Sequence record: PV400810.1
Length of the DNA stretch: 64,000 nucleotides
DNA from: Pseudomonas phage vB_PaeM_GXNNA8
Direction: 5' to 3' (one strand)
This document shows positions 29,393-60,203 of this stretch, in pieces (within the stretch, counting starts at the first letter, position 1; the number at the start of each line of letters is the position of its first letter). The translations under genes were made by a program, and so were the position numbers. The notes under the pieces are model-generated. The model had not been told where the DNA came from and did no database searches. It saw only the letters and a program-made list of their open reading frames with translations.

Positions 29393-29422
29393 TGGTTTAT
29401 TCCTCGTGGCTTAATACATCAA

Positions 29423-42053: not shown

Positions 42054-42110
42054 GTTAGTGTCAAGATCATCTGGTGCGCGGTCAGATAACCTATTGTCTT
42101 GTACCCAAGG

Positions 42111-42128
42111 ATAATGTAGGTTTAAAAT
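42111..42128 (-). promoter_or_regulatory. promoter-like 18-mer, copy 3 (ATTTTAAACCTACATTAT)
   Basis: Sits immediately downstream of hairpin 42160-42193 and about 72 nt upstream of the ATG at 42038. Confidence 0.5.
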
Positions 42129-42159
42129 ATTCCAATAAACGGTATAACTGCAAATATAA

Positions 42160-42193
42160 CCCTACCCACTCCCCGTTAAGGGAGTGGGTAGGG
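42160..42193 (-). terminator. hairpin ccctacccactccc-cgttaa-gggagtgggtaggg (14 bp perfect)
   Basis: Directly follows the codon-optimised probable capsid gene. Confidence 0.65.
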
Positions 42194-42270
42194 CTAATGG
42201 TACACGCAATTTCCGTGAGGTACCTACTAAGGCAGCTCTGGATACTCAAGCCGCCCGTAATTCGCAGGAC

Positions 42271-44496: not shown

Positions 44497-44523
44497 GGAT
44501 ATAAATCCTGTTCGAGATGAGTA

Positions 44524-44567
44524 ACAAACATGTTTGTTGCGCAATAGAACTGCACATAAAATGTGCG
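44524..44567 (-). promoter_or_regulatory. two perfect palindromes upstream of the capsid gene: aacaaacaTGTTTGTT (44524-44539) and tgcacat-aaa-atgtgca (44551-44567)
   Basis: Perfect dyads 28 and 55 nt upstream of the ATG at 44496. Confidence 0.45.
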
Positions 44568-44578
44568 CAGCCTTTTAA

Positions 44579-45124
44579 TCAGGGGTTTTGAAGGTGGATC
44601 AGCTTGAACACTTCAGCCAGAGTCAATTCCCCTAAACCTGCTTTCGGTACAGGACCGAAATGACTTTCCAAATAACCGACCCTTGCATAAAGTGTTTCCA
44701 ATACAGCGGTTGAGATTGTTTTGGCTTGAAGTTTCTCCCAGCTAGCGGTGGCTTTATGTTCCCCTACCTCGACTCCAATGAGAATCACTTGACCATTAAC
44801 CGTCGATCGGAAATGATTGGCGGTACGAAGGAGGGTGGCTATTGCATCACTGTCCACCCCATTAAATGCTTCGGCTACCATCCCCGCATTATACCCATGA
44901 CCAAAGTACGCCGTAGGGTCAGGCATTTCTACACCAAAGACTTTGGCCGCCGCATACTGTAAAGCTACAAAGTTAGCCATTTCACCAAAGGTGATCTTGT
45001 CATGGTATGCAGAAATTTCTTTCAATCCACAGAGCGGGATGGATTGAGCCACCAGGGTGTCAACCAACTCCCCGGTTATCACATACAACTCGAACGGTAA
45101 ACCGTTAGGGTATTTAAAAATCAT
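44579..45124 (-). CDS. hypothetical protein (181 aa) immediately upstream of the capsid gene
   Basis: ORF only; a head-assembly role is a guess from position. Confidence 0.5.
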   Translation of the reverse strand: MIFKYPNGLPFELYVITGELVDTLVAQSIPLCGLKEISAYHDKITFGEMANFVALQYAAAKVFGVEMPDPTAYFGHGYNAGMVAEAFNGVDSDAIATLLRTANHFRSTVNGQVILIGVEVGEHKATASWEKLQAKTISTAVLETLYARVGYLESHFGPVPKAGLGELTLAEVFKLIHLQNP

Positions 45125-46682
45125 CTACTTTACACTCTCAGGGGTTAGCATGAACGATTTGCTGGTGTTAGTAAAACTGTTATCAGCAATATATCAGGCC
45201 AAAAAACTAAAAGACACGAACCTGATCGAAGAACTGACAGACTTACTGGAAGAACTCCCAGCCCCAAATCCCGATGTGATGTCTCAAGACCGACGTGTCA
45301 GGGACAGCATCCGGTCTTCAATTAGCTGGCTGCTAGACCAGTCTAATGACGATCCACTTATAAAATCGTTGCTGATGCAGCGGGTAGCGATCTTCTGCAA
45401 GAATGATGACAGTCTCAGGGATGCGGTGAATGTTGGGTTGGAAGACCTGGAAACAGAGGAACTGTCTCGTCGTCTGGTGTATAAACAGATCACAGAGATT
45501 CGTTCCAGTATGGAAGATGAGGTCTTCGAGAAGCAGTTCAAGAAAGCTATGAAAGAAGTCCTGTACAAGGACCTCGTTGATACCAAACCCGAAGACTTTG
45601 CTAAACTGATTGATTTGATCCAAGAGCGGGTGAATAACGCGTATGGGGAACGTCAATCCGAAGTGGTGAGTTCCGTCAATACGGCTACACCGGAAAGTAT
45701 GCTCGATATCATCGAGATGGCGAAGACGGAGAACAGTTCAGAAGGGATCATTAAAACCGGTATTCAAGGTCTTAATCAAGGATTGGAACCGGATGGAGGC
45801 TTACGTCGAAGTAAGATGTACCTCCTAGAAGCCATGACGAACAGAGGTAAGTCTTTCGGTATGGCTCACCTGATTGCCTCAGCAGGGATGTACAACAAAC
45901 CCATGCTGCGGAATAAGGCTAAGATTCCAACGATCCTGTATGAATCGGCTGAGGATGCCATGGAACTGGTGATTCGTCGGATCTACAAGCTGGCAGTAAC
46001 CACCAAGTACAAAGAAGACCGGGACTTTCAGGTGACTGAAAGCATGGACATTGTAACTGCTATTGCGGATTGCTTCCGGAAGAATGGGTGGTACCTGGTG
46101 ATTAACCAGATTGAAGCCCATAAAGACAATCGGGACAAGATGTTCGCTCGTGTACGGCAATTGGAACTCAAAGGCCATGAGATCATCCTGTACGGGTATG
46201 ATTACTTGGCGTTGCAGAATTTCGATAAACTCCCTGGGGAGAATAAGTCCGATAAACTTCAATTACTATTCCGTACTGTCCGGTCATTTATGATTGCCCG
46301 GGGTATTTGTTTCTTAACACCTCACCAGTTGAGTCCTGAAGCTAAGAAACTACTAAAAGAACTGGATGATGAGTCTGAGGTCTACTTCGCTCGGGAAGTC
46401 TCTGGTAAGTCAATGACAGAAACGTCTACGAAGATTACCAACGAAGTGGATGGTGTCATTACCATTCATGTGGCGAAGACGTCCATGAAGAATTACTTTA
46501 CCTGTTCCATTGGTAAACAACGGGGTGAAGGGTGTTCACCTGAGAAGCGGTTCTTTATTTATGATCTTGATCCCGTGTTAGGGCTTGTACATGACATTAA
46601 TGGTAAACCCGCCTTTAGACGGTCTTTGCAACAACGCTTTAATGAGAATGGTGATGTCGTGAAAGATTGGGACGCCATGTAA
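45057..46682 (+). CDS. DnaB-like (RecA-fold) helicase, candidate; true start probably the Met at about 45150
   Basis: The C-terminal half carries helicase-like motifs in order: RGKSFGMAHL (Walker A-like), LYESAEDA (H1a SLEMS-like Glu), IILYGYDYLALQ (Walker B, hhhhDYLxL), TPHQLSPEA (H3 SQLNR-like) and DGVITIH. Confidence 0.45.
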   Translation: MSTNSPVITYNSNGKPLGYLKIIYFTLSGVSMNDLLVLVKLLSAIYQAKKLKDTNLIEELTDLLEELPAPNPDVMSQDRRVRDSIRSSISWLLDQSNDDPLIKSLLMQRVAIFCKNDDSLRDAVNVGLEDLETEELSRRLVYKQITEIRSSMEDEVFEKQFKKAMKEVLYKDLVDTKPEDFAKLIDLIQERVNNAYGERQSEVVSSVNTATPESMLDIIEMAKTENSSEGIIKTGIQGLNQGLEPDGGLRRSKMYLLEAMTNRGKSFGMAHLIASAGMYNKPMLRNKAKIPTILYESAEDAMELVIRRIYKLAVTTKYKEDRDFQVTESMDIVTAIADCFRKNGWYLVINQIEAHKDNRDKMFARVRQLELKGHEIILYGYDYLALQNFDKLPGENKSDKLQLLFRTVRSFMIARGICFLTPHQLSPEAKKLLKELDDESEVYFAREVSGKSMTETSTKITNEVDGVITIHVAKTSMKNYFTCSIGKQRGEGCSPEKRFFIYDLDPVLGLVHDINGKPAFRRSLQQRFNENGDVVKDWDAM

Positions 46683-46702
46683 AGACAAAATGAATAATAG
46701 AC

Positions 46703-46738
46703 CCCCTACCCCCTAGCCTGAGAGCTAGGGGGTAGGGG
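46703..46738. terminator. bidirectional hairpin cccctaccccctagc-ctgaga-gctagggggtagggg (15 bp perfect)
   Basis: Lies between the convergent helicase (+) and the ParB-like (-) genes. Confidence 0.65.
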
Positions 46739-46747
46739 TATGTCACG

Positions 46748-47107
46748 TTACATAACGCGATTACGGTAACCCTTTACTTTAAAGGGGCTTCCTTTACCTT
46801 TAAACCAGTCCGTTGGAATGACCTTAACGTTCAAGGTGGGTTGTCCTTCCCAATGGGCTTTAAGGAACCGGTGCCAGCCATCAATGATCACCCACTCTCC
46901 TTCCCATTCCGTAATCAGCAACGGAAAGGAATAATCCGCTCGCTTAATCCGGTCCTTGTCCTCTTCAACGGCATGCGCCAGGAGCCATTCAAAGTCCTTT
47001 AAGGGAACCGTTTGAACGGGGAGTGTCTCACTTCGACGGAGGAAGTCGTTGAGGTGGTAGACTTTACCGTCATGAACGAACGTAGATCCATATTCCTGAT
47101 ACGCCAT
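46748..47107 (-). CDS. ParB/Srx-fold (ParB-like nuclease domain) protein, candidate
   Basis: WVIIDGWHRFLKA contains the DGxHR signature of ParB N-terminal-like domains. Confidence 0.35.
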   Translation of the reverse strand: MAYQEYGSTFVHDGKVYHLNDFLRRSETLPVQTVPLKDFEWLLAHAVEEDKDRIKRADYSFPLLITEWEGEWVIIDGWHRFLKAHWEGQPTLNVKVIPTDWFKGKGSPFKVKGYRNRVM

Positions 47108-47814
47108 TAGTCCCCCTTAATGGGTAGATCCATCCGAACAGTTCGAGTCGGTTGGGTGTAGTCTTCCAACAGGCCCATGAGCTGCTCCCGGAGACGATCC
47201 CAGCTCGGTTGAGTAATCGTTAGGTTATCCAACTTCAGTCGGATATTCCGAACCTCAGGGTCTGCGAAGACTTCCGTCAACGGGAAATACGCATAGTTCC
47301 GTCCTATTTTAAACCGAACCTTGTATTTCTCGTCAAAGAACTTCAAACTGTGATTCAACCGTTCCAGCAAGATACTCGCCACGTGTTCTTCCGGTAGAGA
47401 CAGGTAATAATCCCCGTCTTGGGTAAAGACCAACCCTTCCTTATCGTGGAGGGTGACTTTACCGGCTTCTAATACGGCTTCAAACCGCCCGTCCTTGTTG
47501 TCGTGGAACATCAGGGTATGGGTGCTCCGTCCCATCTTCACCACCCGCTTATTGTGCTTATAGCACGCAATCACCACCAACAACGGTAACGTCTGGTAAT
47601 CATACGAACGATCGCTTAGGTATTCCTCCACTTCCCCCTCGCTGGTTTCACGGATAATCACCAGGTGTTCAGCATACACGTCATACAACACCGATTCGTT
47701 ATGATCCAGCAACGTGGTAAAAAACCGTTTGGATTCACCGTTAATGAACAGACCGGTGTCATGTGTATGGGTTTTACCCAATAGGTCTTGTTCAAACACC
47801 ACTTGGTAATGCAT
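47107..47814 (-). CDS. hypothetical protein (235 aa)
   Basis: An AGGAG Shine-Dalgarno sits 9 nt upstream of the ATG at 47814. The stop/start overlaps the next gene by 1 nt. Confidence 0.5.
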   Translation of the reverse strand: MHYQVVFEQDLLGKTHTHDTGLFINGESKRFFTTLLDHNESVLYDVYAEHLVIIRETSEGEVEEYLSDRSYDYQTLPLLVVIACYKHNKRVVKMGRSTHTLMFHDNKDGRFEAVLEAGKVTLHDKEGLVFTQDGDYYLSLPEEHVASILLERLNHSLKFFDEKYKVRFKIGRNYAYFPLTEVFADPEVRNIRLKLDNLTITQPSWDRLREQLMGLLEDYTQPTRTVRMDLPIKGD

Positions 47815-47856
47815 AAACCGAATCTCCTAAATGATCCATTGGGTATAATCACGACG

Positions 47857-47874
47857 GTAATATAGGTTTGATTT
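47857..47874 (-). promoter_or_regulatory. promoter-like 18-mer, variant copy 4 (AAATCAAACCTATATTAC)
   Basis: Matches the consensus at 14 of 17 positions. It lies downstream of hairpin 47904-47930 and 43 nt upstream of the ATG at 47814. Confidence 0.4.
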
Positions 47875-47903
47875 CCCCTTTAGCTTAAATGCGGTATAAC
47901 ACC

Positions 47904-47930
47904 CCCTACCTAAGCTCAGCTTAGGTAGGG
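47904..47930 (-). terminator. hairpin ccctacctaagct...agcttaggtaggg
   Basis: Inverted repeat after gene 47981-48421. Confidence 0.5.
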
Positions 47931-47980
47931 AGGTCAGTAATGGGGTAGTAAGTGGGTATACCAGTAAACATTTACTGTTT

Positions 47981-48421
47981 TCATGTCTCAAAGTCTACAG
48001 GGGGAGGAGCAGTCAGCAAGCGATCACCCGCATACACCGCCCCGTAATACCCGGGGCCTTCTTGATACAACGGTTCTGTCTTCGTAAAGGCTAAGAAGAC
48101 ATCTTCCAATCCGTCAGGGACTTTACACAACGGAGGATCAGTAGGGGGTTTATCTTGAAGTACTCTGTACGCTTCTGTAAGCTTCCAATAGAGCCGATTG
48201 TCCTTACCCGCCTCTACCGTACTCCTTTCTACCTGATCGCCTCGCCTAAGCGCTGCTAGACGCCTTACCAGCATCACAAACAACGCATCCGCCTTAGCAA
48301 AGGTAATCTTCGCCTCCCTTTCCAATAACCGTATCAATATCCCCGCATTCGTTTGATCCTCTACACTCACGTGTAAGAGATCAAATGTATTCTTAATTTC
48401 ATTAACCCCACGATGCGTCAT
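47981..48421 (-). CDS. hypothetical protein (146 aa)
   Basis: ORF only. Confidence 0.45.
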   Translation of the reverse strand: MTHRGVNEIKNTFDLLHVSVEDQTNAGILIRLLEREAKITFAKADALFVMLVRRLAALRRGDQVERSTVEAGKDNRLYWKLTEAYRVLQDKPPTDPPLCKVPDGLEDVFLAFTKTEPLYQEGPGYYGAVYAGDRLLTAPPPVDFET

Positions 48422-48702
48422 TGTTTTTCTTTTCCTTTAACCGTGATGCGTTCACCAAGCAGACCGAGCACACGTTCGTCTTTGCCGTCGTCGAGACAGG
48501 GAATGATATCAGGTAGAGGTTCAGTTGCCCGGAGGCGTTTTCGGATGAGTTTGAGCATTACAGGCCCGGGTATCTCGCTCGTCCGCGTAGTGCCGTACAA
48601 ATGGTAACCTGCCAGTAAGTCTGCCAGTTGACGGTTACTGAAATGGTCGAAATCCCCAGTCATGGTATTTACTCCGGTAGTGAATCGGTAATGGCAGAGC
48701 AA
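48418..48702 (-). CDS. hypothetical protein (94 aa)
   Basis: Has a 4-nt overlap with the downstream gene. Confidence 0.4.
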   Translation of the reverse strand: MLCHYRFTTGVNTMTGDFDHFSNRQLADLLAGYHLYGTTRTSEIPGPVMLKLIRKRLRATEPLPDIIPCLDDGKDERVLGLLGERITVKGKEKQ

Positions 48703-49018
48703 TCTTCTCAGCTCTGCTTGCTGAATGTATTAATCAGAACGTGTTGGAATACTGATTAACCTACGGTTCTCTCTCCTTTTTCCTCATCCCCCTTCCGGGG
48801 GTATAAGGGGGTATTCCCTCTCTTCCCTTTCTCTTCTCTCTCTGTATTCCGTATAGATCAAAAGAAAGATCTAAAGAGAATAGAGAAAGATCAAAAGAGA
48901 GAACAAGGAAGTCGTAGTTACTCCGTAACTACTCCACTCTTTATTAGGAAATAAACCCCTTTCCCCACTGCTTGTCAGCCAGTTTACAATACAATAAATA
49001 CATTAAGTGATAAATTAC
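48703..49018. repeat. 316-bp non-coding island with an 85-nt polypyrimidine tract, an AG-rich tract with three GATC sites and direct repeats, and several hairpins
   Basis: Elements: ttaatcag...ctgattaa; cccccttccggggg; ctctcttccctttctcttctctctc followed by gatcaaaagaaagatctaaagagaatagagaaagatcaaaagagag; and gtagttac-tcc-gtaactac. Confidence 0.5.
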
Positions 49019-50362
49019 CTAAGGAGCATCAAATACCCTGTCATTCAAGAAGAGGGTTAAAGCAGAATGTTCCCTGAAGATAATATCTGGACTTTCCGTA
49101 TCCTTCATGAGTTCAGTACGAGCACCAATCAAAGTACCCTCCTTGTACTTCAAGCGATCATCCCCACTCATAAAGAAGAACCGTACAGGCATACCCGGTT
49201 CTAGTAAGTCCCTGTTCGAGTTATTCCACTGGATCGTTTCCAATGTCCCATCATTGTAAGCATTCACGGATAAGTGCTTACAGAGGTTATTGGTAGGAGT
49301 CGGTTCAAAGGGTATAATCTCCTCCCCACTGCTCCGCTTAGCGGTTTGGTATTCGGAGAGGGAATCAGGACGGGTAGATGCTGACTGACCCTTAGCGTAG
49401 TAGTTGCCCACTTCACCCATGACCGCGTCCGAACTGATCAACCGTTTACCCGTACCCTCATTCTGACGGTCAATGTCAGCCCCATCCACATGTCGACCTG
49501 TACCGGTTGCCAAGATCGTTGTAACCCGGTCTTGGGTAAAGTACGTGGCGTGGAGGGTAGGGACTGCATCAGGGGGTAGTCGATAAATACTCAGTACCCG
49601 TTTACCGTTCTCATACCGACCGATCTTGAAGAGCGGGTAAATCATCCAAAGGCCTTTCTGGTAATACATCCCAAAGCCTTTGGTATAGATCCCAAACTCC
49701 TCATGGGTCTGCATCCACATCCCTAACTGGGGTAAAGGCACCGCAGACGGTATATCGATCAACTTAAAGACCCGAGGGTTATCAATAGGGCGTTCAATGT
49801 CCACCCCTCTAAAGGCATCCTTACCCGTCAACTGAAGTTGCTTACCGTATTTGGTGAGTTGGTAGTGGAGCGCGTCATCCAAGGTGGTCATTAAGTGTTT
49901 GTCAGACACCATCTCATTCTTCAGCAAAGCGTACCCCAGTTCAATCATCTGGAACTTAACCGTTATCAGGTTAATACTGTCCTTACCTTCCAGGTGAGCC
50001 AAATGGACGCTGTTACCGGCCATCTCAGGGTTCGAGTCACTCAAGGGGATACACCGGAACCGACTCATGGTTTGATGAAGACCTTGGCGTTCGACCACTT
50101 CAATAAAGAGATTGTCCTTATAGGGCAGGATTCGGTTCAGGTAAACCCCGGGTTGCAAGTTGCCCTGAATACGCCAGTCATCGGAACAGTTCGCTGAATA
50201 CATCGACAACCGAGCCATCCCCGTGGGGATAATCAGTTCAATCTGTTCAACCGGAGTAATGATCGTTGCAAACAGTCGGATCTTCTTATCCGACCGTTGC
50301 GTATTCACCGAGTTTGCTAAGGCGATTAAGTTAGCTAATGGACGTGGTAATTCCATACTCAC
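49019..50362 (-). CDS. hypothetical protein (447 aa), first gene of a 15-kb minus-strand block
   Basis: ORF with a 4-nt overlap with the next gene. Confidence 0.55.
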   Translation of the reverse strand: MSMELPRPLANLIALANSVNTQRSDKKIRLFATIITPVEQIELIIPTGMARLSMYSANCSDDWRIQGNLQPGVYLNRILPYKDNLFIEVVERQGLHQTMSRFRCIPLSDSNPEMAGNSVHLAHLEGKDSINLITVKFQMIELGYALLKNEMVSDKHLMTTLDDALHYQLTKYGKQLQLTGKDAFRGVDIERPIDNPRVFKLIDIPSAVPLPQLGMWMQTHEEFGIYTKGFGMYYQKGLWMIYPLFKIGRYENGKRVLSIYRLPPDAVPTLHATYFTQDRVTTILATGTGRHVDGADIDRQNEGTGKRLISSDAVMGEVGNYYAKGQSASTRPDSLSEYQTAKRSSGEEIIPFEPTPTNNLCKHLSVNAYNDGTLETIQWNNSNRDLLEPGMPVRFFFMSGDDRLKYKEGTLIGARTELMKDTESPDIIFREHSALTLFLNDRVFDAP

Positions 50363-51093
50363 AGTAATCCTGTCGGTTTATTGAACAACCAAGGACCGAG
50401 ATCCTCAGGTGTATCATGCGTGGCTAAACTATCCGCTACAGCTTTGTTCGTGATATACGGCTGTTCACTGAGTGAGAGACCCGGGTTCAACGTATCGTCC
50501 CCGAAGAGTTCATCCAAATGACTGACGAAACTGATCTCAGCTTTGGGGGTTCCCATGGCGTTGATACTAAACAGCGCTGACAACTGCATTAGGTTCCGTT
50601 TATCGGTCTCTTGAACATCACCCCCCAGTTCCCGTAGTTTCTTCTTATCCAAGTACGGTTTAATCCGTTTGTAGAAGTTAAAGAGGGTATACGCCAGGAG
50701 TTCCAGCTTACGAAGTTCATCAATGGAGGGTGTTGGAAACTCCGGTGCTTTCTTAAAGAGTTCACACCAGAGACAAATGTACTCCTGAATGGATTCGTAG
50801 ATCAACGGAATCACAATCTGAGGTTCCCTGAATCCCAAATCCTTCTCACTGGACAAGTTAGGCAGGATATCGATGATCCTGGGAACACTCATCCGTCGAA
50901 CTTGGTATTCGTTGTAGTAATTCGGATCTCCAACGAACCCCTCCTGGGAGTATTCTTCCCGATCCCGGAGTTCTTCCAAACTCATGAGCATTGCGGGCGT
51001 TACCCACACATCGAAGGACCGGTTATTCAGAATGTTGTAGAGTTCGATTAGTCGGGTGCGTATGGTGTTATACCGACTTAAGGGCATGCTCAT
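50359..51093 (-). CDS. hypothetical protein (244 aa)
   Basis: Translationally coupled with both neighbours. Confidence 0.55.
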   Translation of the reverse strand: MSMPLSRYNTIRTRLIELYNILNNRSFDVWVTPAMLMSLEELRDREEYSQEGFVGDPNYYNEYQVRRMSVPRIIDILPNLSSEKDLGFREPQIVIPLIYESIQEYICLWCELFKKAPEFPTPSIDELRKLELLAYTLFNFYKRIKPYLDKKKLRELGGDVQETDKRNLMQLSALFSINAMGTPKAEISFVSHLDELFGDDTLNPGLSLSEQPYITNKAVADSLATHDTPEDLGPWLFNKPTGLL

Positions 51094-52385
51094 AGCGGAC
51101 CTCCAAATTTACGCGCGTACTTCAGCAGCATCAGCAGAATAGCCCCTTCGTACAGTTGTTCTACCGGTTCCTTATCAAAGTACCCTTCGCAATAGGCTAA
51201 GAGTTCTTTATGATCCGTGACTTTCGTGGTAAGGGTTCGGTACAGGAGGTTCTCAAAGGCGCCTTCGGGTTTCCCTTGGTAAAAGCCTTGACTAAAGAGG
51301 TACGTAATGTCCTCTTGTTTCCCGGGAATAACAATGGGATACCCGTCCATATTGAAGTGAACCCGATACGCAATGAAGTCCTTAGGGTTGGTGGTCACGA
51401 ACCACCGGATCTTACTCGACGACAGGTTACCGTACAACCGGCTGTTCATTAAGCGGGTTACTTCCACCAAGGCGGCTTTGTTGTCGCACACCTTCAAGAG
51501 ATTCAAATCCCCCCTCAACAACACTTCCCAAATGTTGTTCGTTCCCCACCGGCTGTACTCCAATCCCCCGTACTGAACCGAGAACTGGTTAATGGGTGGG
51601 TAGTTCTGTCGCATGTCCGGGGTAATGAACGCAGACAGGAAGTTCACCAGATAAGGGTCATACACCTTATCCTTCTCATTGGTCCCCTTCTTATCGAACA
51701 CGATGGTGCGTTCGGGGTTCCAGTAGAACCGTTTCAGGATATGACTGGCGATGGTTTGATTCCACTGGAAGAGTTTCTGTCCAACCTCCTCTTCCCCTTT
51801 AGTAATCAGGGAAGCCCCTCCATGGAGTACAGAATCTTTGGAATACACCCGGTGTTGGACCACCCGTCCTTGGAGAATGGTATCCGTCTCCTGGTCCAGG
51901 ATACCCCTCAATACCGCGGTAACGAAGTACACCTTATTTGCGGTGAAATTACGAATTTCCGGTTGTTCCGTACACGCAAAGAGCCCTGCTCGACCATCCC
52001 CAATGTCCACAATAAACACATCATGGCGAATAGGGTTGGCATCGGTGGTAAACCAGAAGTTAAAGATCTTGGTGGATTCACCGGTCTGAGGATCAAAGTT
52101 AAACGTCTCATCCCCATCGATCTTGAGGGGTAACCGGTCAATACGCACGTAACTCTGGTACGTATCGGTGTTTCCAGGGTAGAAGGGTTTTGGTTCTTCA
52201 CCTGGATTCAGGAATTGACGGAAGTACTGACAGAGACGAGGACGTCCTTCAACTTCAGAGAGCAGGCTCTGTTCGGGTTGCCAAACGGAATCCACAATGG
52301 AATGCCGATACGTCTCGCTGTAGATCCGGGGCGTTTCAGGTTCAATCGGAATATCCCTTCCGATAGGGTTAATATCCAGAGACAT
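51090..52385 (-). CDS. hypothetical protein (431 aa)
   Basis: ORF only. Confidence 0.55.
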   Translation of the reverse strand: MSLDINPIGRDIPIEPETPRIYSETYRHSIVDSVWQPEQSLLSEVEGRPRLCQYFRQFLNPGEEPKPFYPGNTDTYQSYVRIDRLPLKIDGDETFNFDPQTGESTKIFNFWFTTDANPIRHDVFIVDIGDGRAGLFACTEQPEIRNFTANKVYFVTAVLRGILDQETDTILQGRVVQHRVYSKDSVLHGGASLITKGEEEVGQKLFQWNQTIASHILKRFYWNPERTIVFDKKGTNEKDKVYDPYLVNFLSAFITPDMRQNYPPINQFSVQYGGLEYSRWGTNNIWEVLLRGDLNLLKVCDNKAALVEVTRLMNSRLYGNLSSSKIRWFVTTNPKDFIAYRVHFNMDGYPIVIPGKQEDITYLFSQGFYQGKPEGAFENLLYRTLTTKVTDHKELLAYCEGYFDKEPVEQLYEGAILLMLLKYARKFGGPL

Positions 52386-52400
52386 GGTTTCATTTCCTTC

Positions 52401-53909
52401 TTAATCGTTCCGGTAGGCCCACAGGCCAAAGCCCATCTCATATCGGTTAAAGCGCTCGGTCCAACGACCCCATCCCTTATGGATGTGTTTCCGGAGGTAG
52501 TTGATGTGTAAGTACCACGGTTCAGGTACTTCACTGAAATCGAACCAATCAAAGATCTGAGGCAAAATACCCCAGTCTTCAGGATGATCGATTAAATCGC
52601 TCCAGAATGCGTCAGAATAGTCTCTTATCGCATAGTCGAGGGTTACCACTACTCGATACGTTTTGTTTAAAACAGGCCTGCTGTGGAGCGTTATAGACCC
52701 CTTCTCATCCAGGGTCAGGTGTTCGGGGGCAATTAACTGGTCATTTTCAAAGACTTGAATCAGAAAAGGGGTTTCAAAATGCTGGAAGGCAACCGCATGA
52801 CGACGAAGTAAATACGCCTTAGCATTGTCGTACCAAACAAAGTCAGGAATATCAAATAGGTTACAAAGTACCTGAGTGGGTTCATCCTCGACTTTGAGTC
52901 GTGCTTGGATCACCGGTTGCATCCAATCGAAGTTAGGCCACGCCCAAGGATCGTGCTTAGGCAGCTTCAAATAGAAGGGGGTGTGTCTGAACCCTTCCGG
53001 GAACATAATCTCCCGACCGGCTTCTACTTCAGGAGCGGCTTTAATGAACTCCGGTAATTCATGTTGAGGTTGGACTCTCGGAATATACTGACTGGGTATT
53101 TCATCCTGATAAATGTTCAGGGGATACTCAAACTCCCACCCAATGAAATCATTGAAGAAGAAGCTGTACGTAAACTCCACTTCCCACCGACCATAAGTCG
53201 CGCTCTTATTCGTCTTCGCTACAAAGGGTTCGGAGAACTGAATACCAACTCGGTTCTGTTTAAGCGGGATAACTACCCGTTTGTGGTTACCCGCTACGTT
53301 ACTGATCACACGCACCGGAAATTGCCACATCTCACCCAGCCATTCAGACGGGTCGGGTACCGACGGGTTGTTCTTCTTCAAGAGGTCGTAAATCACCTCC
53401 AGGAATTCCATAATAGGAGGATTAATGACCATATGAGTCGTTGGGGAGAAGGTGAAGTCAACGACTTGGTTCTCCTTGAGCCGGTTCATACGGTCTTTCA
53501 TCTGACGAGCGGTGTTCTCCGAGTTGAACATCGACACGACTTTGACATCAATCCGTTTGTTCTCAAACGTAGGGCACAACAGGATACCCGGTTCCTTGTT
53601 GTACAGTACGGGTCGTTCTACCATCTGACGACGGTTCGTCCAAGCTTCACTACGGTTCACCTCAGGAACAATAAAGATCTTGTTCCTGAAAATCCCATCT
53701 GTGTACCGATCTGCATGAGGGCCGTCACTCATATTGCTCCCTACGGTCTTCGCAATCTCATTCTCACCGTTGTAGTAAATGGCGGTGGCGGAGTCTAGCC
53801 CGTAGAAGTTCAATACAGCCTTAATGGAATCATAAATCGCAGGACGCAAATAAGCGTCGTAGTTTTCTTCGCATTCAACAAAAGTTTTAAGCATATTCAC
53901 TGCCTGCAC
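52401..53909 (-). CDS. hypothetical protein (502 aa)
   Basis: ORF only. Confidence 0.55.
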   Translation of the reverse strand: MQAVNMLKTFVECEENYDAYLRPAIYDSIKAVLNFYGLDSATAIYYNGENEIAKTVGSNMSDGPHADRYTDGIFRNKIFIVPEVNRSEAWTNRRQMVERPVLYNKEPGILLCPTFENKRIDVKVVSMFNSENTARQMKDRMNRLKENQVVDFTFSPTTHMVINPPIMEFLEVIYDLLKKNNPSVPDPSEWLGEMWQFPVRVISNVAGNHKRVVIPLKQNRVGIQFSEPFVAKTNKSATYGRWEVEFTYSFFFNDFIGWEFEYPLNIYQDEIPSQYIPRVQPQHELPEFIKAAPEVEAGREIMFPEGFRHTPFYLKLPKHDPWAWPNFDWMQPVIQARLKVEDEPTQVLCNLFDIPDFVWYDNAKAYLLRRHAVAFQHFETPFLIQVFENDQLIAPEHLTLDEKGSITLHSRPVLNKTYRVVVTLDYAIRDYSDAFWSDLIDHPEDWGILPQIFDWFDFSEVPEPWYLHINYLRKHIHKGWGRWTERFNRYEMGFGLWAYRND

Positions 53910-53920
53910 GATGTGGTCTA

Positions 53921-53951
53921 GGAGGGAGAGGGGTTCCCCCCTTCTCCCTCC
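53921..53951 (-). terminator. imperfect GC hairpin ggagggaga-gggg-ttc-cccc...tctccctcc
   Basis: Inverted repeat between minus-strand genes. Confidence 0.4.
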
Positions 53952-53968
53952 CCAGTACCAGACGTTGG

Positions 53969-54724
53969 TTATTCCGGGTCTACGTCACCGGGCGATGGTT
54001 GGGGATCTTCTTCCCCTTCGGAACGGTACCGAATAAACAGATGAGGACCCTCCTCAAGCTTAATGATCACCAAGCCTGAGAAACAATCCGATACGTTATC
54101 GATCAGTTCTCCCCCTTTCAACCGATCCACCGTAACCGACTGGATCTTAACGGAGTTCAGGTAATCCACCACCTGCTGACAGAAAGTGTCAGACAACCGA
54201 GACCGGTTCTCCGTAAAGAGGTTCCCATTCCCCTGGAAGATTTTAGAACTTAACGCCATCTGGAGACGAGGGGTATCCAAGTCGGTGGCTTTAAGAATCC
54301 CTGAAGGCCCTAAGCGGGCTTTATTGAGCAGTTTAAGGATCAGGCGCCCTTTCCACAGGATACTGGTCGGAGCGATCTCCAGGGTGACCATCTGGAAAGG
54401 AGAAGGTGCATTCTTGGGCAGGTCTACTTTCCCTTCTGGAACCGTATAGTCCACCCCTTCCACGAGGAAGAGTTTAAACGTGTTACTGAGCCGTTTAAAC
54501 ACCTGAGCCAACGGTTCTTGGTCAGCCACCGGGAGCTCAGGAATACTGACCCCCATGTAATCCCCAATATCCTTCTTTGGAATAGGGAGTATGGTTTCGT
54601 CGTTATTCAACTGAACCACCACATACCCGACGTCTTCATCTCCAGGTTGAGTACCCAGGATAACGCTGTCTTTGGGCAGCTGTGTTTGGATCTGTTCCAA
54701 GACACGTGGATGGAGTGTTTTCAT
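53969..54724 (-). CDS. hypothetical protein (251 aa)
   Basis: ORF only. Confidence 0.5.
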   Translation of the reverse strand: MKTLHPRVLEQIQTQLPKDSVILGTQPGDEDVGYVVVQLNNDETILPIPKKDIGDYMGVSIPELPVADQEPLAQVFKRLSNTFKLFLVEGVDYTVPEGKVDLPKNAPSPFQMVTLEIAPTSILWKGRLILKLLNKARLGPSGILKATDLDTPRLQMALSSKIFQGNGNLFTENRSRLSDTFCQQVVDYLNSVKIQSVTVDRLKGGELIDNVSDCFSGLVIIKLEEGPHLFIRYRSEGEEDPQPSPGDVDPE

Positions 54725-56193
54725 GTGTTCGTACCCCCAGTGTTCCCACCCTCTTTAATAAAGATGTGGGGTGTAATACCTTTAATGGCTTTACGAAGAC
54801 CTTTAACCAACTTATCGTGCTCACCAATCTTCTTCTTGGCCTCCGCAACGGCTTCTTTAGCAGCTTTAACCGTTTCCTGTACTGCTGCCTTAGCCGCACT
54901 AACCGCTTCTTTGTCTTCATCATTCCCACTGGTCTGCTGAGAGGCTTTCCTCAATTCAGCCAGGGTGGTATCAACCGCTTTCTTATCAGCCCGGAGTTTC
55001 TCACCGTTGACTTCTTCTTTCTTAAGAAGACCCAACAGTCCATCGATTACACCCCCTACGTCCGTGGGTGTCCGAAGCCGATTCACAACCTGAGACATTG
55101 CCCCAGAGACATCCACCTTCTCCGCTAGGGTCTTAATCCCCTCACGTGCCTTGTCGTTGATGCTGACATTCTTGGTGGGCATGGATTGGACCGCTTTCTT
55201 ATTGTCCTCCCCAGTCTTTGCTACGGCATCGTTGTCGGCTTTCTCTTTCTCAGACGACTCGTACCAAGCTTTCAGTTGTTCCCAGCCACTCAAAGCCGCT
55301 TGGTAGGCGTTCCGAGCAACCGCTTTAATGGAGTCAAAGACTTGACCCTCACTCCCTTCAATGGAACGGAGTTTAACCCCGTTCATTTCAGCAACAGTCA
55401 TGAAATAATCACGGTCGGTGCTTTGAATACCATCCAGGTAATCTTCCAGACCCTGGAGAACATGCAATGGGTGGTCGAGCACACACCCGCATTCACAGGT
55501 ATCACCTCCCGCACACTCCAACCCAGGAACCCCCCAATGATTGACCTCAATCGGATGGAGGTAGGTGTAGTCCATCGGCGCATACTCTTCCAAGCCCGCC
55601 AACAGCCCCTGACGAGAGGTTACGAAGATGTCCACCAAACTCAGAATCTTGTCAATGTATTCCAGTTTACGCGCGGTAGCGGAATACACTTCAGCTGGGG
55701 TGAGCTTCAGACTATCCTCATCCTGTTCCAGCAGGTAATTGACCAACCCTTTACCCTTGCTGATCAGTGCACCTACTCCTTCCGCCTCCGTAAATGCACC
55801 ACCCTTATTCCCCAACGAACAAATCAGCATGGAAATGTCCCGAGGGAATTGATAGATTCCGTTCTCAATACTACTCAGGGTTTCCTTCAGGTAACGGTCC
55901 AGGACAGCATTCACTTTCAACTCACTGGCGTCGTAATAGTCAAACTCACGACTGATAATATTCAGTGTGTTGACAATCTGACCCATGATGTGTTCTTCAG
56001 TTAATTGACTAATCCCATGTTTCTCCAGGTAGCTAATCAATTCAGGGGTCTTCTCCTCGGAGAGAACGTCCTTACCCACTTCCCCCAGGATCATCCCCAG
56101 CAAACCTAAACGATAGGCTGCGTTCATCATCGTCCCCTTACTTAACCTTAACGGTGACATTACCCTTGTAAATCGTCGAGTAACGTGCGTCAA
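54721..56193 (-). CDS. hypothetical protein with a Cys cluster (CAGGDTCECGC) and a Lys/Ala-rich C-terminus; true start probably the internal Met near 56130
   Basis: The listed 5' end overlaps the upstream gene by 56 nt. Confidence 0.55.
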   Translation of the reverse strand: MTHVTRRFTRVMSPLRLSKGTMMNAAYRLGLLGMILGEVGKDVLSEEKTPELISYLEKHGISQLTEEHIMGQIVNTLNIISREFDYYDASELKVNAVLDRYLKETLSSIENGIYQFPRDISMLICSLGNKGGAFTEAEGVGALISKGKGLVNYLLEQDEDSLKLTPAEVYSATARKLEYIDKILSLVDIFVTSRQGLLAGLEEYAPMDYTYLHPIEVNHWGVPGLECAGGDTCECGCVLDHPLHVLQGLEDYLDGIQSTDRDYFMTVAEMNGVKLRSIEGSEGQVFDSIKAVARNAYQAALSGWEQLKAWYESSEKEKADNDAVAKTGEDNKKAVQSMPTKNVSINDKAREGIKTLAEKVDVSGAMSQVVNRLRTPTDVGGVIDGLLGLLKKEEVNGEKLRADKKAVDTTLAELRKASQQTSGNDEDKEAVSAAKAAVQETVKAAKEAVAEAKKKIGEHDKLVKGLRKAIKGITPHIFIKEGGNTGGTNT

Positions 56194-56623
56194 TTATGAG
56201 AGTGTCGTTAACCAGGCCCAAGTCGACTTCGTGACGGTAGAGACCGGGTAACCCTACAAAACTCCGCCAGAGTTCAAAGTACGTGGTATGAGGATCATCC
56301 TCCTTGAGGACGAGGGGGGTGCTGGGTTGAACAATCGGTTCCTGTTCCTCTGGGATCACCCCCAGCTTTTCCTGGAGAAGACTCACAACGATCTCAGGCG
56401 TTTCCTTATAAGTCACCTGGCTAATGTCCTGGGGAATCCCCTTTAGGAACTCTCCGAGATCCAAGCGTTCAATCAGGACACCCTGACGCAGTTCTCCATG
56501 GGGGATGTATTTGAACACCGCATCGTTAACCCTCGTAGTAATCCCAAACCGAGGGTTAATGTCAGTGTAACCACCCAATGCGGCTTTCACCACAACAGAT
56601 TGATTCAATAAGCTAAGCTGCAT
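56138..56623 (-). CDS. hypothetical protein (161 aa)
   Basis: ORF only. Confidence 0.5.
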   Translation of the reverse strand: MQLSLLNQSVVVKAALGGYTDINPRFGITTRVNDAVFKYIPHGELRQGVLIERLDLGEFLKGIPQDISQVTYKETPEIVVSLLQEKLGVIPEEQEPIVQPSTPLVLKEDDPHTTYFELWRSFVGLPGLYRHEVDLGLVNDTLIIDARYSTIYKGNVTVKVK

Positions 56624-56628
56624 AGCCT

Positions 56629-57696
56629 TTAGCTCCTTCTCTTCACAGCGGCTTCCAACACCGCGTAAACAGCGTTAGCACTCCGGTACACTTCCGTCTC
56701 CATGACTTTAAGACTCGCCATGGCATTACGAATCACGGCTTTCATTTCCTTGATGACAACCTGAGCTTCAGGAGACGCCTCTTTAACGTTCAGACTTGCC
56801 ATTAACGCCGTTACAAAGTCATTCTCCAACGAATGGACCTTAGTGTTCATGTCCTTGAGGGATTCTGTTAGACGATTGTGCTTGACCAGGAGTTCACGTA
56901 CCTGGGAGACATTGGTCTTAAAGGTCGCGTTCTTCACTCGATCATTCGACAAGACACCCAGTTCCCGCGTCAGGTTAATCGTCACGTCCACGGTGTTCTT
57001 ACCCACGACCAGGTCATCTTTAAACACCAGTGTGGCTTCCTGGTTCGCATTCACCCCTAACAGACCCTTAACCTCTTGGTAGAAGGCATTCCCCTTGGTA
57101 CTGAATTCCGTGTATTTCGAATGGTCAATCAGACGACCCAATTCCTTACAGAAGTTCCCTACACTCGAACTGTACCGTTCAATCGTCTTAATCCCACGCT
57201 CAATATCCCCGATGACGGTACCTACCCACCCCACATTCGACGGTAACCTGCCCGTTTTAGGGAAGATATAAAAGGCGGCTTTGGGATACGGAATGTCATC
57301 CTCCCGTACACCGTTGGCTTTAAGAGCGACCTCCAGTTCATCTCCTTTGTCTTTCAGGGCTTTCCCTTTGGTCCCAAAGAAACTCCAGATCCACTTAAAG
57401 AAATCCTTAACCACTTGAATGAGTTTACCGATACCGTGTTTAACGGAATCAATAAACCCCTCAGTACCGGTCGAAGCAGTCAACCGATTCTGATGTCGGT
57501 GGAGAACGTAGTTGTAGACACTTTCTAATCCACTGATCTTGTCGTTCTCTCTGGAGAGTGCAACCATAGTCGTTTCGTCGTTGACTAGATCATAACCCTC
57601 CCTATCCTCCTCATACTCTTCATACACCGTCGGTGAATTCACGTATCGGAGGGGTGCTACAGGATGCGTATTCATCGTTAACAACCTAATAGTCAA
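56629..57696 (-). CDS. hypothetical protein (355 aa)
   Basis: ORF only. Confidence 0.55.
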   Translation of the reverse strand: MTIRLLTMNTHPVAPLRYVNSPTVYEEYEEDREGYDLVNDETTMVALSRENDKISGLESVYNYVLHRHQNRLTASTGTEGFIDSVKHGIGKLIQVVKDFFKWIWSFFGTKGKALKDKGDELEVALKANGVREDDIPYPKAAFYIFPKTGRLPSNVGWVGTVIGDIERGIKTIERYSSSVGNFCKELGRLIDHSKYTEFSTKGNAFYQEVKGLLGVNANQEATLVFKDDLVVGKNTVDVTINLTRELGVLSNDRVKNATFKTNVSQVRELLVKHNRLTESLKDMNTKVHSLENDFVTALMASLNVKEASPEAQVVIKEMKAVIRNAMASLKVMETEVYRSANAVYAVLEAAVKRRS

Positions 57697-57739
57697 GTTG
57701 AGTACATAGCATCGAAATTACAGTATTGCGACATAAAGG

Positions 57740-57771
57740 CTACAGGTAGGGGGATATCCCCCTACCTGTAG
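57740..57771 (-). terminator. hairpin ctacaggtaggggg-atat-ccccctacctgtag (14 bp perfect)
   Basis: Directly follows the second codon-optimised gene. Confidence 0.65.
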
Positions 57772-57802
57772 TACCTCTAGGAATAGATCCTAACACTCGA
57801 CC

Positions 57803-59059
57803 TTACAGGTGAGCCGCAACCAGATCCAGCGATTGCTTGGCTTGGTAAGCCAGCAGACGGTTGACCGACTGGGTCAGGCTCGCACCGGTGCTGTACAGCG
57901 CGCGCACCAGTTTGATCGCCTTGTCAGCATCACCCTTGGCGTCTTTGTCACCACCTTTGGCGTTCAGGGTGCCGACGACACGGTCACGTTCAGCCTTGGA
58001 GAACTTCTGGCTGATCTTGCTGTCTTTCAGAACGAATACAGTAGCGCTCACAGTTTTCAGCAGGCTTTCCAGTTGTGCTTTGGTTGCCTTGACAGCCACT
58101 TCACCTTTGGCGAACTCGGCAGCGTCCTTGTTCTTGCCGAAGGACAGCTTGACGGAACGCGCGGCAGCCAGGACTTCTTCATCGGTATCGACCTTCTCTT
58201 CGTAGGTCAGGTAGATACCGAAGCCGGCACGTGCAGCCAGGACTTGACGCTTGTCACCGGAACCTTTCTCAGTGGCATTGCCACCGGTTTCTTTCACAAC
58301 GGCTTTGACGTCAGCGACCAGGCTGTTGTACGCAGTCTTGAACTGGGAGGCGTTGACACCGTCGAGGTTCTTGCCGATGTCGATGAAGGCCGGCAGGGAT
58401 TCGCTCAGGACTTTGGTAAACGGACCTTTGTCCAGGATGTCCGCGCCGTTCTTGGCATAGTCGACACCGATGTTCCATTTGCCCAGCTTGACTTTCTCTT
58501 TCAGCTTGTCGGCTTTACCGAGTTTGTCGGCGAGCTGAGCACGACGACGGTCGATACCGGCAGCGGTGCTGAACAGACCCACGAAGAAGTTGATGACGGT
58601 GTTGAAGATCGCCTTGATGAACTCGGCGGCTTTCTTACCGGCATTCTTCACGGTGTCCATGAAGGCTTCAACGCCGGTCACCGAAGCGATCTTGGCGGTG
58701 GCAGCGTCGGAGATGGATTCCGCACCCAGGCGTTCGAAGGATTGGCCGCCCAGCTTGGCGTTCAGACGCAGGGCCTTGTTGTAGCTGTGAGCGAAACCAA
58801 CGGAGCTGAACTGACCCGAGCTCAGCATGCTTTCCAGGCCTTCGACTTCTTCAGCCAGTTCTTCGACGACTTCTTCGTGCTCTTCCAGGTCATCACGCAG
58901 TTCTTCGACTTCAGCCGCGACCTGTTCTACCTCTGCCACAACCTCGGCGATGTCAGCACGCACTTCTTCGACAGCGGCTTCGGTCACACCATCTTCGAGG
59001 TTGTCCGCGCCGTTCTCCAGAAGCTCTTCCATGCCAGTGTAGCGATCGAGAATACTCAT
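57803..59059 (-). CDS. highly expressed-looking acidic coiled-coil plus Lys/Ala-rich protein (scaffold or internal head protein are guesses); start ATG at 59059 (MSILDRYTGMEELLE...)
   Basis: Codon usage matches that of the capsid gene. The N-terminus is EEL...EEVRADIAEVVAEVEQVAAEVEELRDDLEEHEEVVEELAEEVEGLE. An AAGGA Shine-Dalgarno sits 8 nt upstream. The antisense 424-aa ORF was rejected. Confidence 0.55.
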   Translation of the reverse strand: MSILDRYTGMEELLENGADNLEDGVTEAAVEEVRADIAEVVAEVEQVAAEVEELRDDLEEHEEVVEELAEEVEGLESMLSSGQFSSVGFAHSYNKALRLNAKLGGQSFERLGAESISDAATAKIASVTGVEAFMDTVKNAGKKAAEFIKAIFNTVINFFVGLFSTAAGIDRRRAQLADKLGKADKLKEKVKLGKWNIGVDYAKNGADILDKGPFTKVLSESLPAFIDIGKNLDGVNASQFKTAYNSLVADVKAVVKETGGNATEKGSGDKRQVLAARAGFGIYLTYEEKVDTDEEVLAAARSVKLSFGKNKDAAEFAKGEVAVKATKAQLESLLKTVSATVFVLKDSKISQKFSKAERDRVVGTLNAKGGDKDAKGDADKAIKLVRALYSTGASLTQSVNRLLAYQAKQSLDLVAAHL

Positions 59060-59074
59060 GAGTTGTTTCCTTTG

Positions 59075-59110
59075 TTTCGTTAACGAAATGAAATGATTGT
59101 TTATAAACAA
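59075..59110 (-). promoter_or_regulatory. two perfect palindromes upstream of the acidic protein gene: tttcgttaacgaaa (59075-59088) and ttgtttaTAAACAA (59097-59110)
   Basis: The dyad half-site TTGTTT/AAACAA is shared with the palindrome upstream of the capsid gene. Confidence 0.45.
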
Positions 59111-59111
59111 A

Positions 59112-60203
59112 TCAAGCGAATACCCCAAGTACACCATGAATGTACTTATCGGTATAACCGACCACACGAGGAGTGAATCCGCTATAAAATGCGAGCGCTC
59201 CCATGTTTCCAGCCATCAGCTTCTCAGCTTCGCCTATTACCGTCTTACTCACTTGATCCAATTGACTCAAGTTACCATCAACACCTTTGACCATTTCTGC
59301 CCAAGATTTGATGAATCCGAGATAACTCTCATACGATGCCTTAACCCGCAAGTGCAACGCATTGACCTTCCCGAGTTTATTCAGGATGTCAGTGACCTCG
59401 GTTTTAGACAGGTTCAGGGTCACCCCTTCCCCTTCATGCGGTTCACCCCCAATGGAATACACCGCAGGTTTATCGTCTTCTTCCTGTTTGAAGAGGAAGA
59501 AACGACCACCCGGTAGCACCTCAGACTTATACGCCTTATCCAACCGGTCAGCGAACTTCATAACGGGATATTCCAACCCGTTGAACGCATCAATGACCTT
59601 GTGAATGTCTTCGGACTTCTTAGCCGATTTCAACTGCTTCAAGGTCACCAATTCACGGTCCAAGAACCCCATCAGGTCTTTGGCGTGTTGTTCAACGACT
59701 TCGAGGTCCTTAACCAGAAGATCCATGTCGTGGAGAATACGGTCAGGGTTACCCGTCGCAGTAATCAGTCCAATCTTCTTGCCAGTAACCTGAATATCTT
59801 TGTCAGCCACCTTACCAGCGTCTTTAAGGACATTTTTAATAAGTCCTTGATTGTCATTGAAACTCTTATTCAGTTGATTACCTGCGGTCGTCATACCACG
59901 AATAAAGCCATCAATCGCTTTACCCCCGACCCATTTACTCACACTGAACAAACCCCGACCCACCGAAGACAAGCTGTCCATGGCGGCTTCTTTCAACGCC
60001 TCACTGCCCTCGACATCATCCATTCCCATGATACTGCCCAACTCAAGGAGTTCTGAGTGAGCCTGCATCAGGTCCTGGTGTTGTTCGAGGGCATCAACGT
60101 ATTGGCTTTTATAACCCGCGCTCATACCCTCACCCCGCTTAGTCCAGGCTTTCTTCGTAAAGCCCAATGGAATCGTTACAGATAGACACCATCCCGTTGA
60201 CAA
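59112..60203 (-). CDS. hypothetical protein (363 aa; start possibly the internal Met near 60125)
   Basis: ORF only. Confidence 0.5.
   Translation of the reverse strand: MSTGWCLSVTIPLGFTKKAWTKRGEGMSAGYKSQYVDALEQHQDLMQAHSELLELGSIMGMDDVEGSEALKEAAMDSLSSVGRGLFSVSKWVGGKAIDGFIRGMTTAGNQLNKSFNDNQGLIKNVLKDAGKVADKDIQVTGKKIGLITATGNPDRILHDMDLLVKDLEVVEQHAKDLMGFLDRELVTLKQLKSAKKSEDIHKVIDAFNGLEYPVMKFADRLDKAYKSEVLPGGRFFLFKQEEDDKPAVYSIGGEPHEGEGVTLNLSKTEVTDILNKLGKVNALHLRVKASYESYLGFIKSWAEMVKGVDGNLSQLDQVSKTVIGEAEKLMAGNMGALAFYSGFTPRVVGYTDKYIHGVLGVFA

Follow-up and report, generated by a model that had tools for sequence, protein, structure and literature searches.

Perfect palindromes upstream of the most codon-biased head genes of an Elvirus jumbo phage as candidate mRNA leader elements

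We analysed a 64,000-nucleotide stretch of the genome of Pseudomonas phage vB_PaeM_GXNNA8 (PV400810.1; below, the window), in which two head genes with strong codon bias are preceded by short perfect palindromes. Both genes are on the minus strand. The first, at 42271-44496, encodes the major capsid protein (orthologue of gp78 of Pseudomonas phage EL; 98% DNA identity to EL; Pfam PhiKZ_MCP PF25620, E 7e-131), and the second, at 57803-59059, encodes the internal head protein (orthologue of EL gp63; Pfam phiKZ_IP PF12699, E 7e-47; PHROG 5750). Megablast aligns both loci with phage EL and related phages (Elvirus), with identities of 97.5-98.6%. By this comparison the window is Elvirus DNA, related to the nucleus-forming phiKZ-like jumbo phages. 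Elviruses are phiKZ-related jumbo phages with genes for a nuclear-shell protein and for RNA polymerases of their own. The plus strand of EL corresponds to the minus strand of the window, and for genome-wide tests the whole EL genome (211 kb, 201 genes) was assembled from five annotated stretches. As set out below, comparison with relatives indicates that the palindromes are three separate, gene-specific leader elements, which may act on the transcript.

The two genes had been singled out in the initial annotation for their optimal codon usage, which is correct and even understates the case: no other long gene of the 201-gene EL genome is as biased as gp63 and gp78. Their effective numbers of codons, 30.7 and 34.2, are the lowest and the second lowest among the long genes, and both genes sit at one extreme of the first principal axis of codon usage. 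The favoured codons are the classical optimal set, that is CTG, CGT, GGT, CCG, ACC, ATC and the C-ending codons of two-fold families (CTG 77%, CGT 72%, GGT 68%, CCG 84%, NNC above 84%).

The capsid leader contains the palindrome AACAAACATGTTTGTT (dyad 1) at 44523-44538, one base away from the position 44524-44539 first assigned to it; it ends 26 nt before the start codon at 44496 and would occupy positions +18..+33 of the predicted leader. Two palindromes, both exactly where they had been reported, lie in the leader of the internal head protein gene. Dyad A, TTGTTTATAAACAA, at 59097-59110, follows the stop codon of the upstream gene (59112-59114) by 2 nt and ends 37 nt before the start codon at 59059, and dyad B, TTTCGTTAACGAAA, at 59075-59088, lies directly 5' of the ribosome-binding site. 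Each of the three palindromes is unique in the EL genome. The Shine-Dalgarno boxes, as read from the sequence, are AGGA at 44506-44509 for the capsid gene and AAGGA at 59068-59072 for the internal head protein gene, both on the minus strand; the former is paired in a GGAU/AUCC hairpin of the minimum-free-energy fold.

Palindromes of this kind are not rare. There are 26 inverted repeats with arms of at least 7 nt and spacers of at most 4 nt in the window, compared with 17.1 +/- 3.9 in shuffled sequences, so that a single dyad taken alone is not significant, and the sequence by itself cannot show function. One could therefore regard the dyads as functionless chance palindromes, about 17 of which are expected per 64 kb, or as by-products of template switching in AT-rich spacers. 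However, they are conserved in distant relatives and thus are not due to chance: their positions are maintained in 43 of the 55 capsid loci and in all 13 loci of the internal head protein, in leaders that otherwise cannot be aligned. For the three leader palindromes, this explanation is contradicted by the comparative data, and of all those considered here we regard it as the least probable.

The set of capsid loci was retrieved from IMG/VR through alignment of the capsid protein, so as to be unbiased with respect to the leaders, and covers 55 loci with 30-98% protein identity. In 43 of these the leader contains an AT-rich perfect palindrome of the form (A)AACAAAT..ATTTGTT(T) with arms of at least 7 nt. 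It is situated 13-23 nt after the G of a TATG tetranucleotide, the core of the probable late promoter described below, and 16-50 nt before the start codon. Two further loci have arms of 6 nt, and three small lineages have lost the palindrome or let it decay. Eight sequenced jumbo phages of Erwinia, Shewanella, Vibrio, Klebsiella, Aeromonas and Edwardsiella, fetched apart from the IMG/VR set (capsid proteins 30-57% identical), all have TATG followed, 12-24 nt on, by a perfect zero-spacer AACAAA..TTTGTT palindrome. The centres of the capsid palindromes vary and are always self-complementary (TA, TATA, TATATA, TATATATA, CATG, TGCA, TCGA). No AACAAA..TTTGTT palindrome was found in phiKZ itself, either at the late promoter P119L or in the gp119-gp120 spacer. 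The latter contains a zero-spacer palindrome of its own, TCCTACGTAGGA (locus L023, 3250-3261), overlapping the capsid ribosome-binding site. A literature search for the palindrome strings returned nothing relevant, and the capsid palindrome is apparently a so far undescribed feature that an entire clade of jumbo phages has conserved.

Several other assignments of the dyads were considered and rejected. The exact 16-mer AACAAATATATTTGTT cannot be used as a diagnostic string, as it occurs in more than 120 IMG/VR contigs and only 10 of the 80 inspected occurrences adjoin a capsid homologue. The dyads do not resemble transcription terminators: they have 14-29% G+C, with neither a G+C stem nor a consistent T run, and a terminator scan flags only a weak hairpin formed by the GCACAT repeat discussed below, whereas the genuine terminators of this genome have G+C-rich arms of 9-17 bp. 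A replication origin or a packaging site is not indicated either, as there is no turning point of GC skew at either dyad and the capsid palindrome has a fixed place between TATG and the capsid start codon. In a search of Rfam 15, no family matched the dyads at the gathering score, the sole hit in the window being a tRNA at 30030-30102.

The palindromes of the internal head protein gene are conserved in a different manner. Dyad A was observed at the same place in 13 of 13 distinct relatives (37-54% identity), as TTGTTTATAAACAA, TGTTTAATTAAACA, GTTTAATTAAAC, AATTTAATTAAATT or TTATTTAATTAAATAA, and dyad B, again at the same place, in all 13, as TTTCGTTAACGAAA, TTCGTTAACGAA, TTTGAAATTTCAAA or TTTTACTTAAGTAAAA. 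Palindromy is thus retained through compensatory changes, and the TGTTT half-site is lost. Neither the spacer in the window nor any of these 13 contains TATG, and transcription of the gene probably continues from the head genes upstream. Downstream, at 57740-57771 on the minus strand, it is followed by a strong terminator hairpin with 16-bp arms and then by CCTTTATG, which makes a processed or read-through message ending there plausible. The terminator together with CCTTTATG (57729-57771, minus strand) resembles the phiKZ terminator motif ending in TTAT(K) (PMC10914365), and this likeness suggests units composed of a terminator and a late promoter.

In the initial annotation the dyads of the two genes were read as a single element, TTGTTT/AAACAA, that would serve a regulon of abundant virion proteins as operator, activator site or late promoter. 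Both genes are indeed extremes of codon bias. However, the shared hexamer half-site TTGTTT is not present in dyad 1, and the common part is only the pentamer TGTTT/AAACA. Moreover, the order of the arms and the spacing are opposite, AAACA|TGTTT with spacer 0 in dyad 1 against TGTTT-AT-AAACA in dyad A. In the orthologous loci the capsid dyad retains AACAAA/TTTGTT, while the internal head protein dyad drifts to AATTTAATTAAATT or TTATTTAATTAAATAA, so that the half-site is not conserved there. The two elements are also lost independently: in one metagenomic genome the capsid dyad has disappeared (locus L061) and both internal head protein dyads are kept (locus L081, same contig).

Genome-wide counts in EL agree with this. 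AACAAA-N0-10-TTTGTT occurs once in the 211-kb genome, as do TGTTTATAAACA and TTCGTTAACGAA. The initial annotation itself had noted that a common site should also precede other highly expressed late genes; in EL the dyads are missing there. No TGTTT/AAACA dyad was found upstream of the other strongly biased or abundant genes gp23 (nuclear shell), gp161, gp162, gp147, gp6 (tail sheath), gp5, gp127 and gp16 (tubulin). Loose dyads are mildly enriched in the intergenic DNA of EL (three TGTTT-N0-6-AAACA sites against 0.22 expected, and two AAACA-N0-6-TGTTT sites against 0.19), but this test is post hoc and its counts include the two founding sites. One of the extra TGTTT..AAACA intergenic sites is the anticodon arm of a tRNA-Thr (palindrome ACTGTTTACGAAACAGT, window 30060-30076). 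With only three plus two such sites, a genome-wide TGTTT/AAACA family was rejected. A common operator is accordingly very improbable, and in these comparisons the dyads are three separate gene-specific leader elements and not copies of one site.

Just upstream of dyad 1 lies a probable late promoter of the non-virion RNA polymerase, ATTTTATG, at 44555-44562 on the minus strand. It matches the phiKZ late-promoter motif T-3ATG+1 (PMC4666361, PMC7598289). In phiKZ all four bases of this motif are needed and transcription starts at the G (PMC4666361, PMC7598289), and the beta-like subunit gp123 recognises TATG on the non-template strand once this is opened (PMC12809450). Here TATG is at 44558-44555, 59 nt upstream of the capsid start codon, and the capsid transcript is predicted to start at G 44555. 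All capsid orthologues inspected have kept TATG in their leaders. In the EL genome 6 of the 9 copies of ATTTTATG are intergenic, against 0.68 expected (P=1.3e-5), and precede structural operons; the genes downstream of these copies include gp52, gp78, gp112 and gp172, and the extended consensus in EL is (C)ATTTTATG(T/A). The shorter TTATGTG is intergenic in 3 of 11 cases, all correctly oriented, upstream of gp6 (tail sheath), gp78 (capsid) and gp158 (tail-fibre operon).

The same region had been reported to contain a second palindrome of the capsid gene with 7-nt arms. The inverted repeat, GCACAT-TTT-ATGTGC at 44552-44566, is present; its perfect arms are 6 nt long. Conservation is confined to the right arm with its TATG; EL, MIZ-Pa99, HHBS8_1, IR-QUMS and phiRU have ATGCAT as the left arm and lack the palindrome. 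As the left arm differs and the TATG side is invariant, the palindrome is probably incidental and the promoter is its conserved content. The proposal of a late-promoter element was therefore correct in so far as TATG lies inside this repeat; for the dyads, a shared element is not supported. For this repeat alone, chance or template switching is the best explanation of the observed sequence. Compared with five other Elvirus genomes, the window has three substitutions in four bases (GCAC versus ATGC; window 44560-44566, EL 88160-88166). The change makes the left arm the exact reverse complement of ATGTGC and looks like a one-step template-switch mutation (quasi-palindrome correction).

Some further observations concern this promoter type. 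The only other copy of ATTTTATG in the window, at 14596-14603 on the plus strand, is 78 nt upstream of the open reading frame 14681-15922, the orthologue of EL gp112. The divergent gp113/gp112 spacer has facing TATGs (14596-14633), that in ATTTTATG on the plus strand (G 14603) and another on the minus strand (G 14630); if both are starts, the gp113 and gp112 transcripts would be complementary over their first approximately 28 nt. Upstream of the tail sheath gene gp6 of EL (5520-5545 in locus L005), the palindrome ATAACATGTTAT overlaps the putative late promoter ACATGTTATGTG, which is followed by ACAGTG-N8-CACTGT at about +4..+23; late transcripts may thus have a 5' hairpin as a general feature. 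A homologue of phiKZ gp123, the TATG-binding subunit in phiKZ, is encoded at 39177-40889 on the minus strand. Its position relative to the capsid gene, two genes downstream, matches that in phiKZ, and it may have the same role here. The proteins are 21% identical, and 5 of the 14 residues of the TATG pocket are the same (F151, K158, H331, S334, Q466) in an alignment that is uncertain at this distance.

The stretch from the G of TATG to the capsid palindrome forms a short predicted stem-loop, hp1 (GUGCAGU-UCU-AUUGCGC, 44539-44555, minus strand), which begins at the predicted +1 of the capsid mRNA, pairs +1..+5 with +13..+17 and is present in the minimum-free-energy fold. It was recovered by RNAalifold, and its variants include GUGCA..UGCGC in EL, GUGUA..UACAC in many relatives, GUGC..GCAC in the Vibrio phages and GCGU..ACGC in pEt-SU. 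In 25 distinct leaders 93% of the cells are paired; two pairs change on both sides (UA to CG or the reverse), and G-U pairs occur. This score was reached by none of 500 shuffles, and in slid controls the pairing drops to 0-70%. The stem is found in the minimum-free-energy fold of all tested leaders except the Vibrio one, including the lineages that have no palindrome. One of these lineages has a single longer hairpin from +1 instead. In the palindrome-less capsid leaders L038, L047, L056, L060, L061 and L068, an inverted repeat GCGGTAT..ATACCGC brackets TATG, and one long hairpin begins at +1. Given the predicted start site, hp1 has the property expected of a 5'-terminal stabiliser, a covarying stem that begins at the 5' end. 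Covariation counted from the predicted +1 in turn provides indirect support for the start itself and for a role of the 5' end at the RNA level. The stem formed by the palindrome, hp2, was not called by RNAalifold because the length of its centre varies and the stem consists of A-U pairs only.

A third gene shows a similar arrangement. The nuclear-shell (chimallin) gene is the fifth most biased long gene of EL and has an early-type promoter. Its leaders in EL, RisingSun, FishSpeaker and Miami contain a zero-spacer perfect palindrome 9-27 nt before the start codon, with a different sequence in each phage: TTTCTTAAGAAA (EL, 26097-26108 in L005), TAATAAACGTTTATTA (L100), CAGTAACGTTACTG (L101) and CTAATAGCTATTAG (L102). 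A single-protein locus search with the nuclear shell protein recovered EL alone. Zero-spacer palindromes are carried by the genes ranked 1, 2 and 5 in codon bias; over the 141 long EL genes, however, the association with bias is not significant (Mann-Whitney P=0.29).

Perfect palindromes are thus observed 9-50 nt upstream of the start codons of three highly expressed genes in three transcription contexts, that is, after a late promoter (capsid), in an intercistronic spacer (internal head protein) and after an early promoter (nuclear shell). What these genes have in common is the mRNA leader and not the promoter class, and this favours a role at the RNA level. The drift of the sequence with palindromy kept, as in the internal head protein and nuclear-shell leaders, points to structure. 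In addition, hp1 behaves like a stem in RNA, and a longer 5' hairpin is present where lineages have lost the capsid palindrome. We therefore tentatively favour, with a probability of about 0.45, the possibility that the palindromes act on the transcript as short hairpins that help to make the mRNA stable and well translated. The capsid module would then consist of the ATTTTATG promoter, the start at G 44555, hp1, AACAAACATGTTTGTT at +18..+33, the ribosome-binding site and the start codon. In the internal head protein gene, the two palindromes would fill the 53-nt spacer from the upstream stop codon to the ribosome-binding site, with the strong terminator closing the gene. Firstly, the palindromic hairpins and hp1 may shield the 5' end and insulate the ribosome-binding site. 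Secondly, this shielding could yield a stable and efficiently translated mRNA, on top of the optimised codons. We infer both the action on RNA and its effect on stability or translation from the leaders as compared.

A number of observations weigh against such a role. As RNA the palindromes are very weak, with all or nearly all pairs A-U and energies of roughly -1 to -4 kcal/mol. The leaders fold no better than shuffled sequences (the internal head protein leader has z = -0.06, hp1 with dyad 1 z = -1.25), and when the capsid leader is folded in full, the 3' arm of dyad 1 pairs preferentially elsewhere. In every variant the symmetry extends through the central 2-4 nt (TA, TATA, CATG, TGCA, TCGA, TTAA, AATT, ACGT, AGCT); as these bases are unable to pair within a hairpin, a stem does not explain the symmetry there. 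The capsid arms ACAAAT/ATTTGT are conserved down to 30% capsid identity in sequence, and not in pairing alone. Tolerance of G-U pairs on the sense strand at the palindrome flanks is neutral (8 versus 10). Finally, no transcript map for any phage of the EL clade was found in a literature search.

The weak hairpins, the central symmetry and the conservation of the capsid arms fit a dimeric protein on duplex DNA or a promoter-proximal DNA element. Because the symmetry is perfect through the unpaired centre, the AACAAAT..ATTTGTT palindrome at +13..+40 may be an undescribed clade-wide control element at the DNA level, serving either as a downstream determinant of opening by the polymerase or as the operator of a dimeric capsid regulator; we consider this possible, at clearly less than even odds.

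In the version with a dimeric protein, the capsid palindrome, and perhaps the others, would be a duplex-DNA site for a two-fold symmetric phage protein, which at +13..+40 could be a gene-specific repressor, a roadblock or an activator that times or boosts capsid transcription. This would account for a zero-spacer perfect palindrome of 12-20 bp that is unique in the EL genome and weak as an RNA structure. It would also explain the conservation of the arms down to 30% capsid identity and the fact that the centre has stayed symmetric through at least four double changes that arose independently, with CATG and with TGCA in two hp1 lineages each. The distance to TATG (12-24 nt) is, moreover, tighter than that to the start codon (16-50 nt). 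However, the capsid palindrome, dyads A and B and the nuclear-shell palindromes differ, so that separate proteins would be needed, and the nuclear-shell palindromes change their sequence wholly between phages. No promoter is visible where dyads A and B lie. Nor was a candidate protein found, the adjacent gene having no Pfam domain and belonging to a PHROG family of unknown function. On balance we consider such a site possible, but less probable than an action on the transcript. Operators of dimeric regulators, as a general class, are similarly 12-20 bp long and have zero spacers, perfect two-fold symmetry through the centre and conserved arms; in contrast, here there is one site per genome, it is 3' of the start site, and the sister palindromes are unrelated in sequence.

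The other version makes the capsid palindrome a part of the promoter, an easily melted, AT-rich, self-complementary downstream element at which the non-virion polymerase would begin to open the DNA before the bubble reaches TATG. In phiKZ the activity of P119L falls about 30-fold when +1..+51 is replaced, with no motif known in this segment (PMC4666361), and a 2026 structure paper proposed that the strands open at "unknown sequence determinants" and that the bubble then moves to TATG (PMC12809450). The distance between the palindrome and TATG, which is fairly fixed, is consistent with such a part. On the other hand, such a palindrome is missing from the remaining ATTTTATG promoters of EL and from P119L of phiKZ, and several lineages have dropped it and kept TATG. 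It would also leave unexplained the internal head protein and nuclear-shell palindromes, which are far from any promoter. We consider this unlikely.

A late promoter of the AR9 type, A-11ACA-(6N)-T(A/G)+1 (PMC5449584, PMC7598289), shares with dyad 1 the AACA tetranucleotide. However, AACA-AACATG-TT does not fit the spacing or the T(A/G) start, and recognition in AR9 requires uracil-containing DNA; this candidate was rejected.

Returning to the favoured action on mRNA, the arrangement can be compared with known leaders. The leaders of E. coli ompA and T7 gene 10 contain 5'-terminal stabilising stem-loops of abundant mRNAs. As in these, a predicted hairpin from +1 is followed by a second one and by the ribosome-binding site of a very highly expressed gene. 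Unlike theirs, the second hairpin predicted here would consist of A-U pairs only and form from a perfect palindrome of conserved sequence. In 201phi2-1 and phiKZ, promoter-proximal termination sites downstream of the capsid promoters have been proposed to time capsid expression (PMC11512511). These are likewise structured elements just 3' of capsid promoters of related jumbo phages, but they are mapped 3' ends from another clade, and the palindrome described here has neither a G+C stem nor a consistent U tract.

A further parallel is with phiKZ late promoters such as P119L. In both cases TATG is directly upstream of a late structural gene and the motif is enriched in intergenic regions. The neighbourhood is also the same, with a helicase gene, a small head gene, the capsid gene and, two genes further on, the gp123-like polymerase subunit. 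However, the promoter is here between the gp119-like gene and the capsid gene, and in phiKZ it is upstream of the gp119-like gene; the consensus here is extended to (C)ATTTTATG(T/A); the start site here is a predicted one; and the AACAAA..TTTGTT palindrome is absent from P119L and the gp119-gp120 spacer.

Three other features of the window were noted. Matches to sigma-70-like promoters are depleted at 42000-60500 (5 against 17.5 +/- 3.9 in shuffles), which fits independence from the host polymerase. The motif TTTAAACCTA(C/G)ATTAT, annotated as a putative phage promoter in EL and probably of the early, virion-polymerase type, has three copies, all on the minus strand (101-116, 29422-29437 and 42111-42126), against 0.18 expected by chance; one of them is just 3' of the capsid gene. 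A tRNA-Thr gene (anticodon CGT, Rfam 69 bits) was identified between small open reading frames at 30027-30102 on the minus strand; the RefSeq feature table of EL lists no RNA gene in the corresponding stretch.

In phiKZ-like phages the four-base TATG has been the only known late-promoter signal, and further determinants, mainly downstream, have been expected (PMC4666361, PMC12809450). The observations presented here extend the TATG motif to the branch of EL, RisingSun and the Vibrio, Aeromonas and Klebsiella phages. They also suggest that the strongest late gene of this branch has a deeply conserved two-part leader, a stem from the predicted +1 followed by a perfect palindrome. If the element merely stabilises the mRNA, it would be a feature of an ordinary kind in a new family. 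The two-part leader offers a concrete target for mutation in studies of late-promoter strength or mRNA fate in nucleus-forming phages, and the leader elements may serve as compact parts for engineering high expression in such phages.

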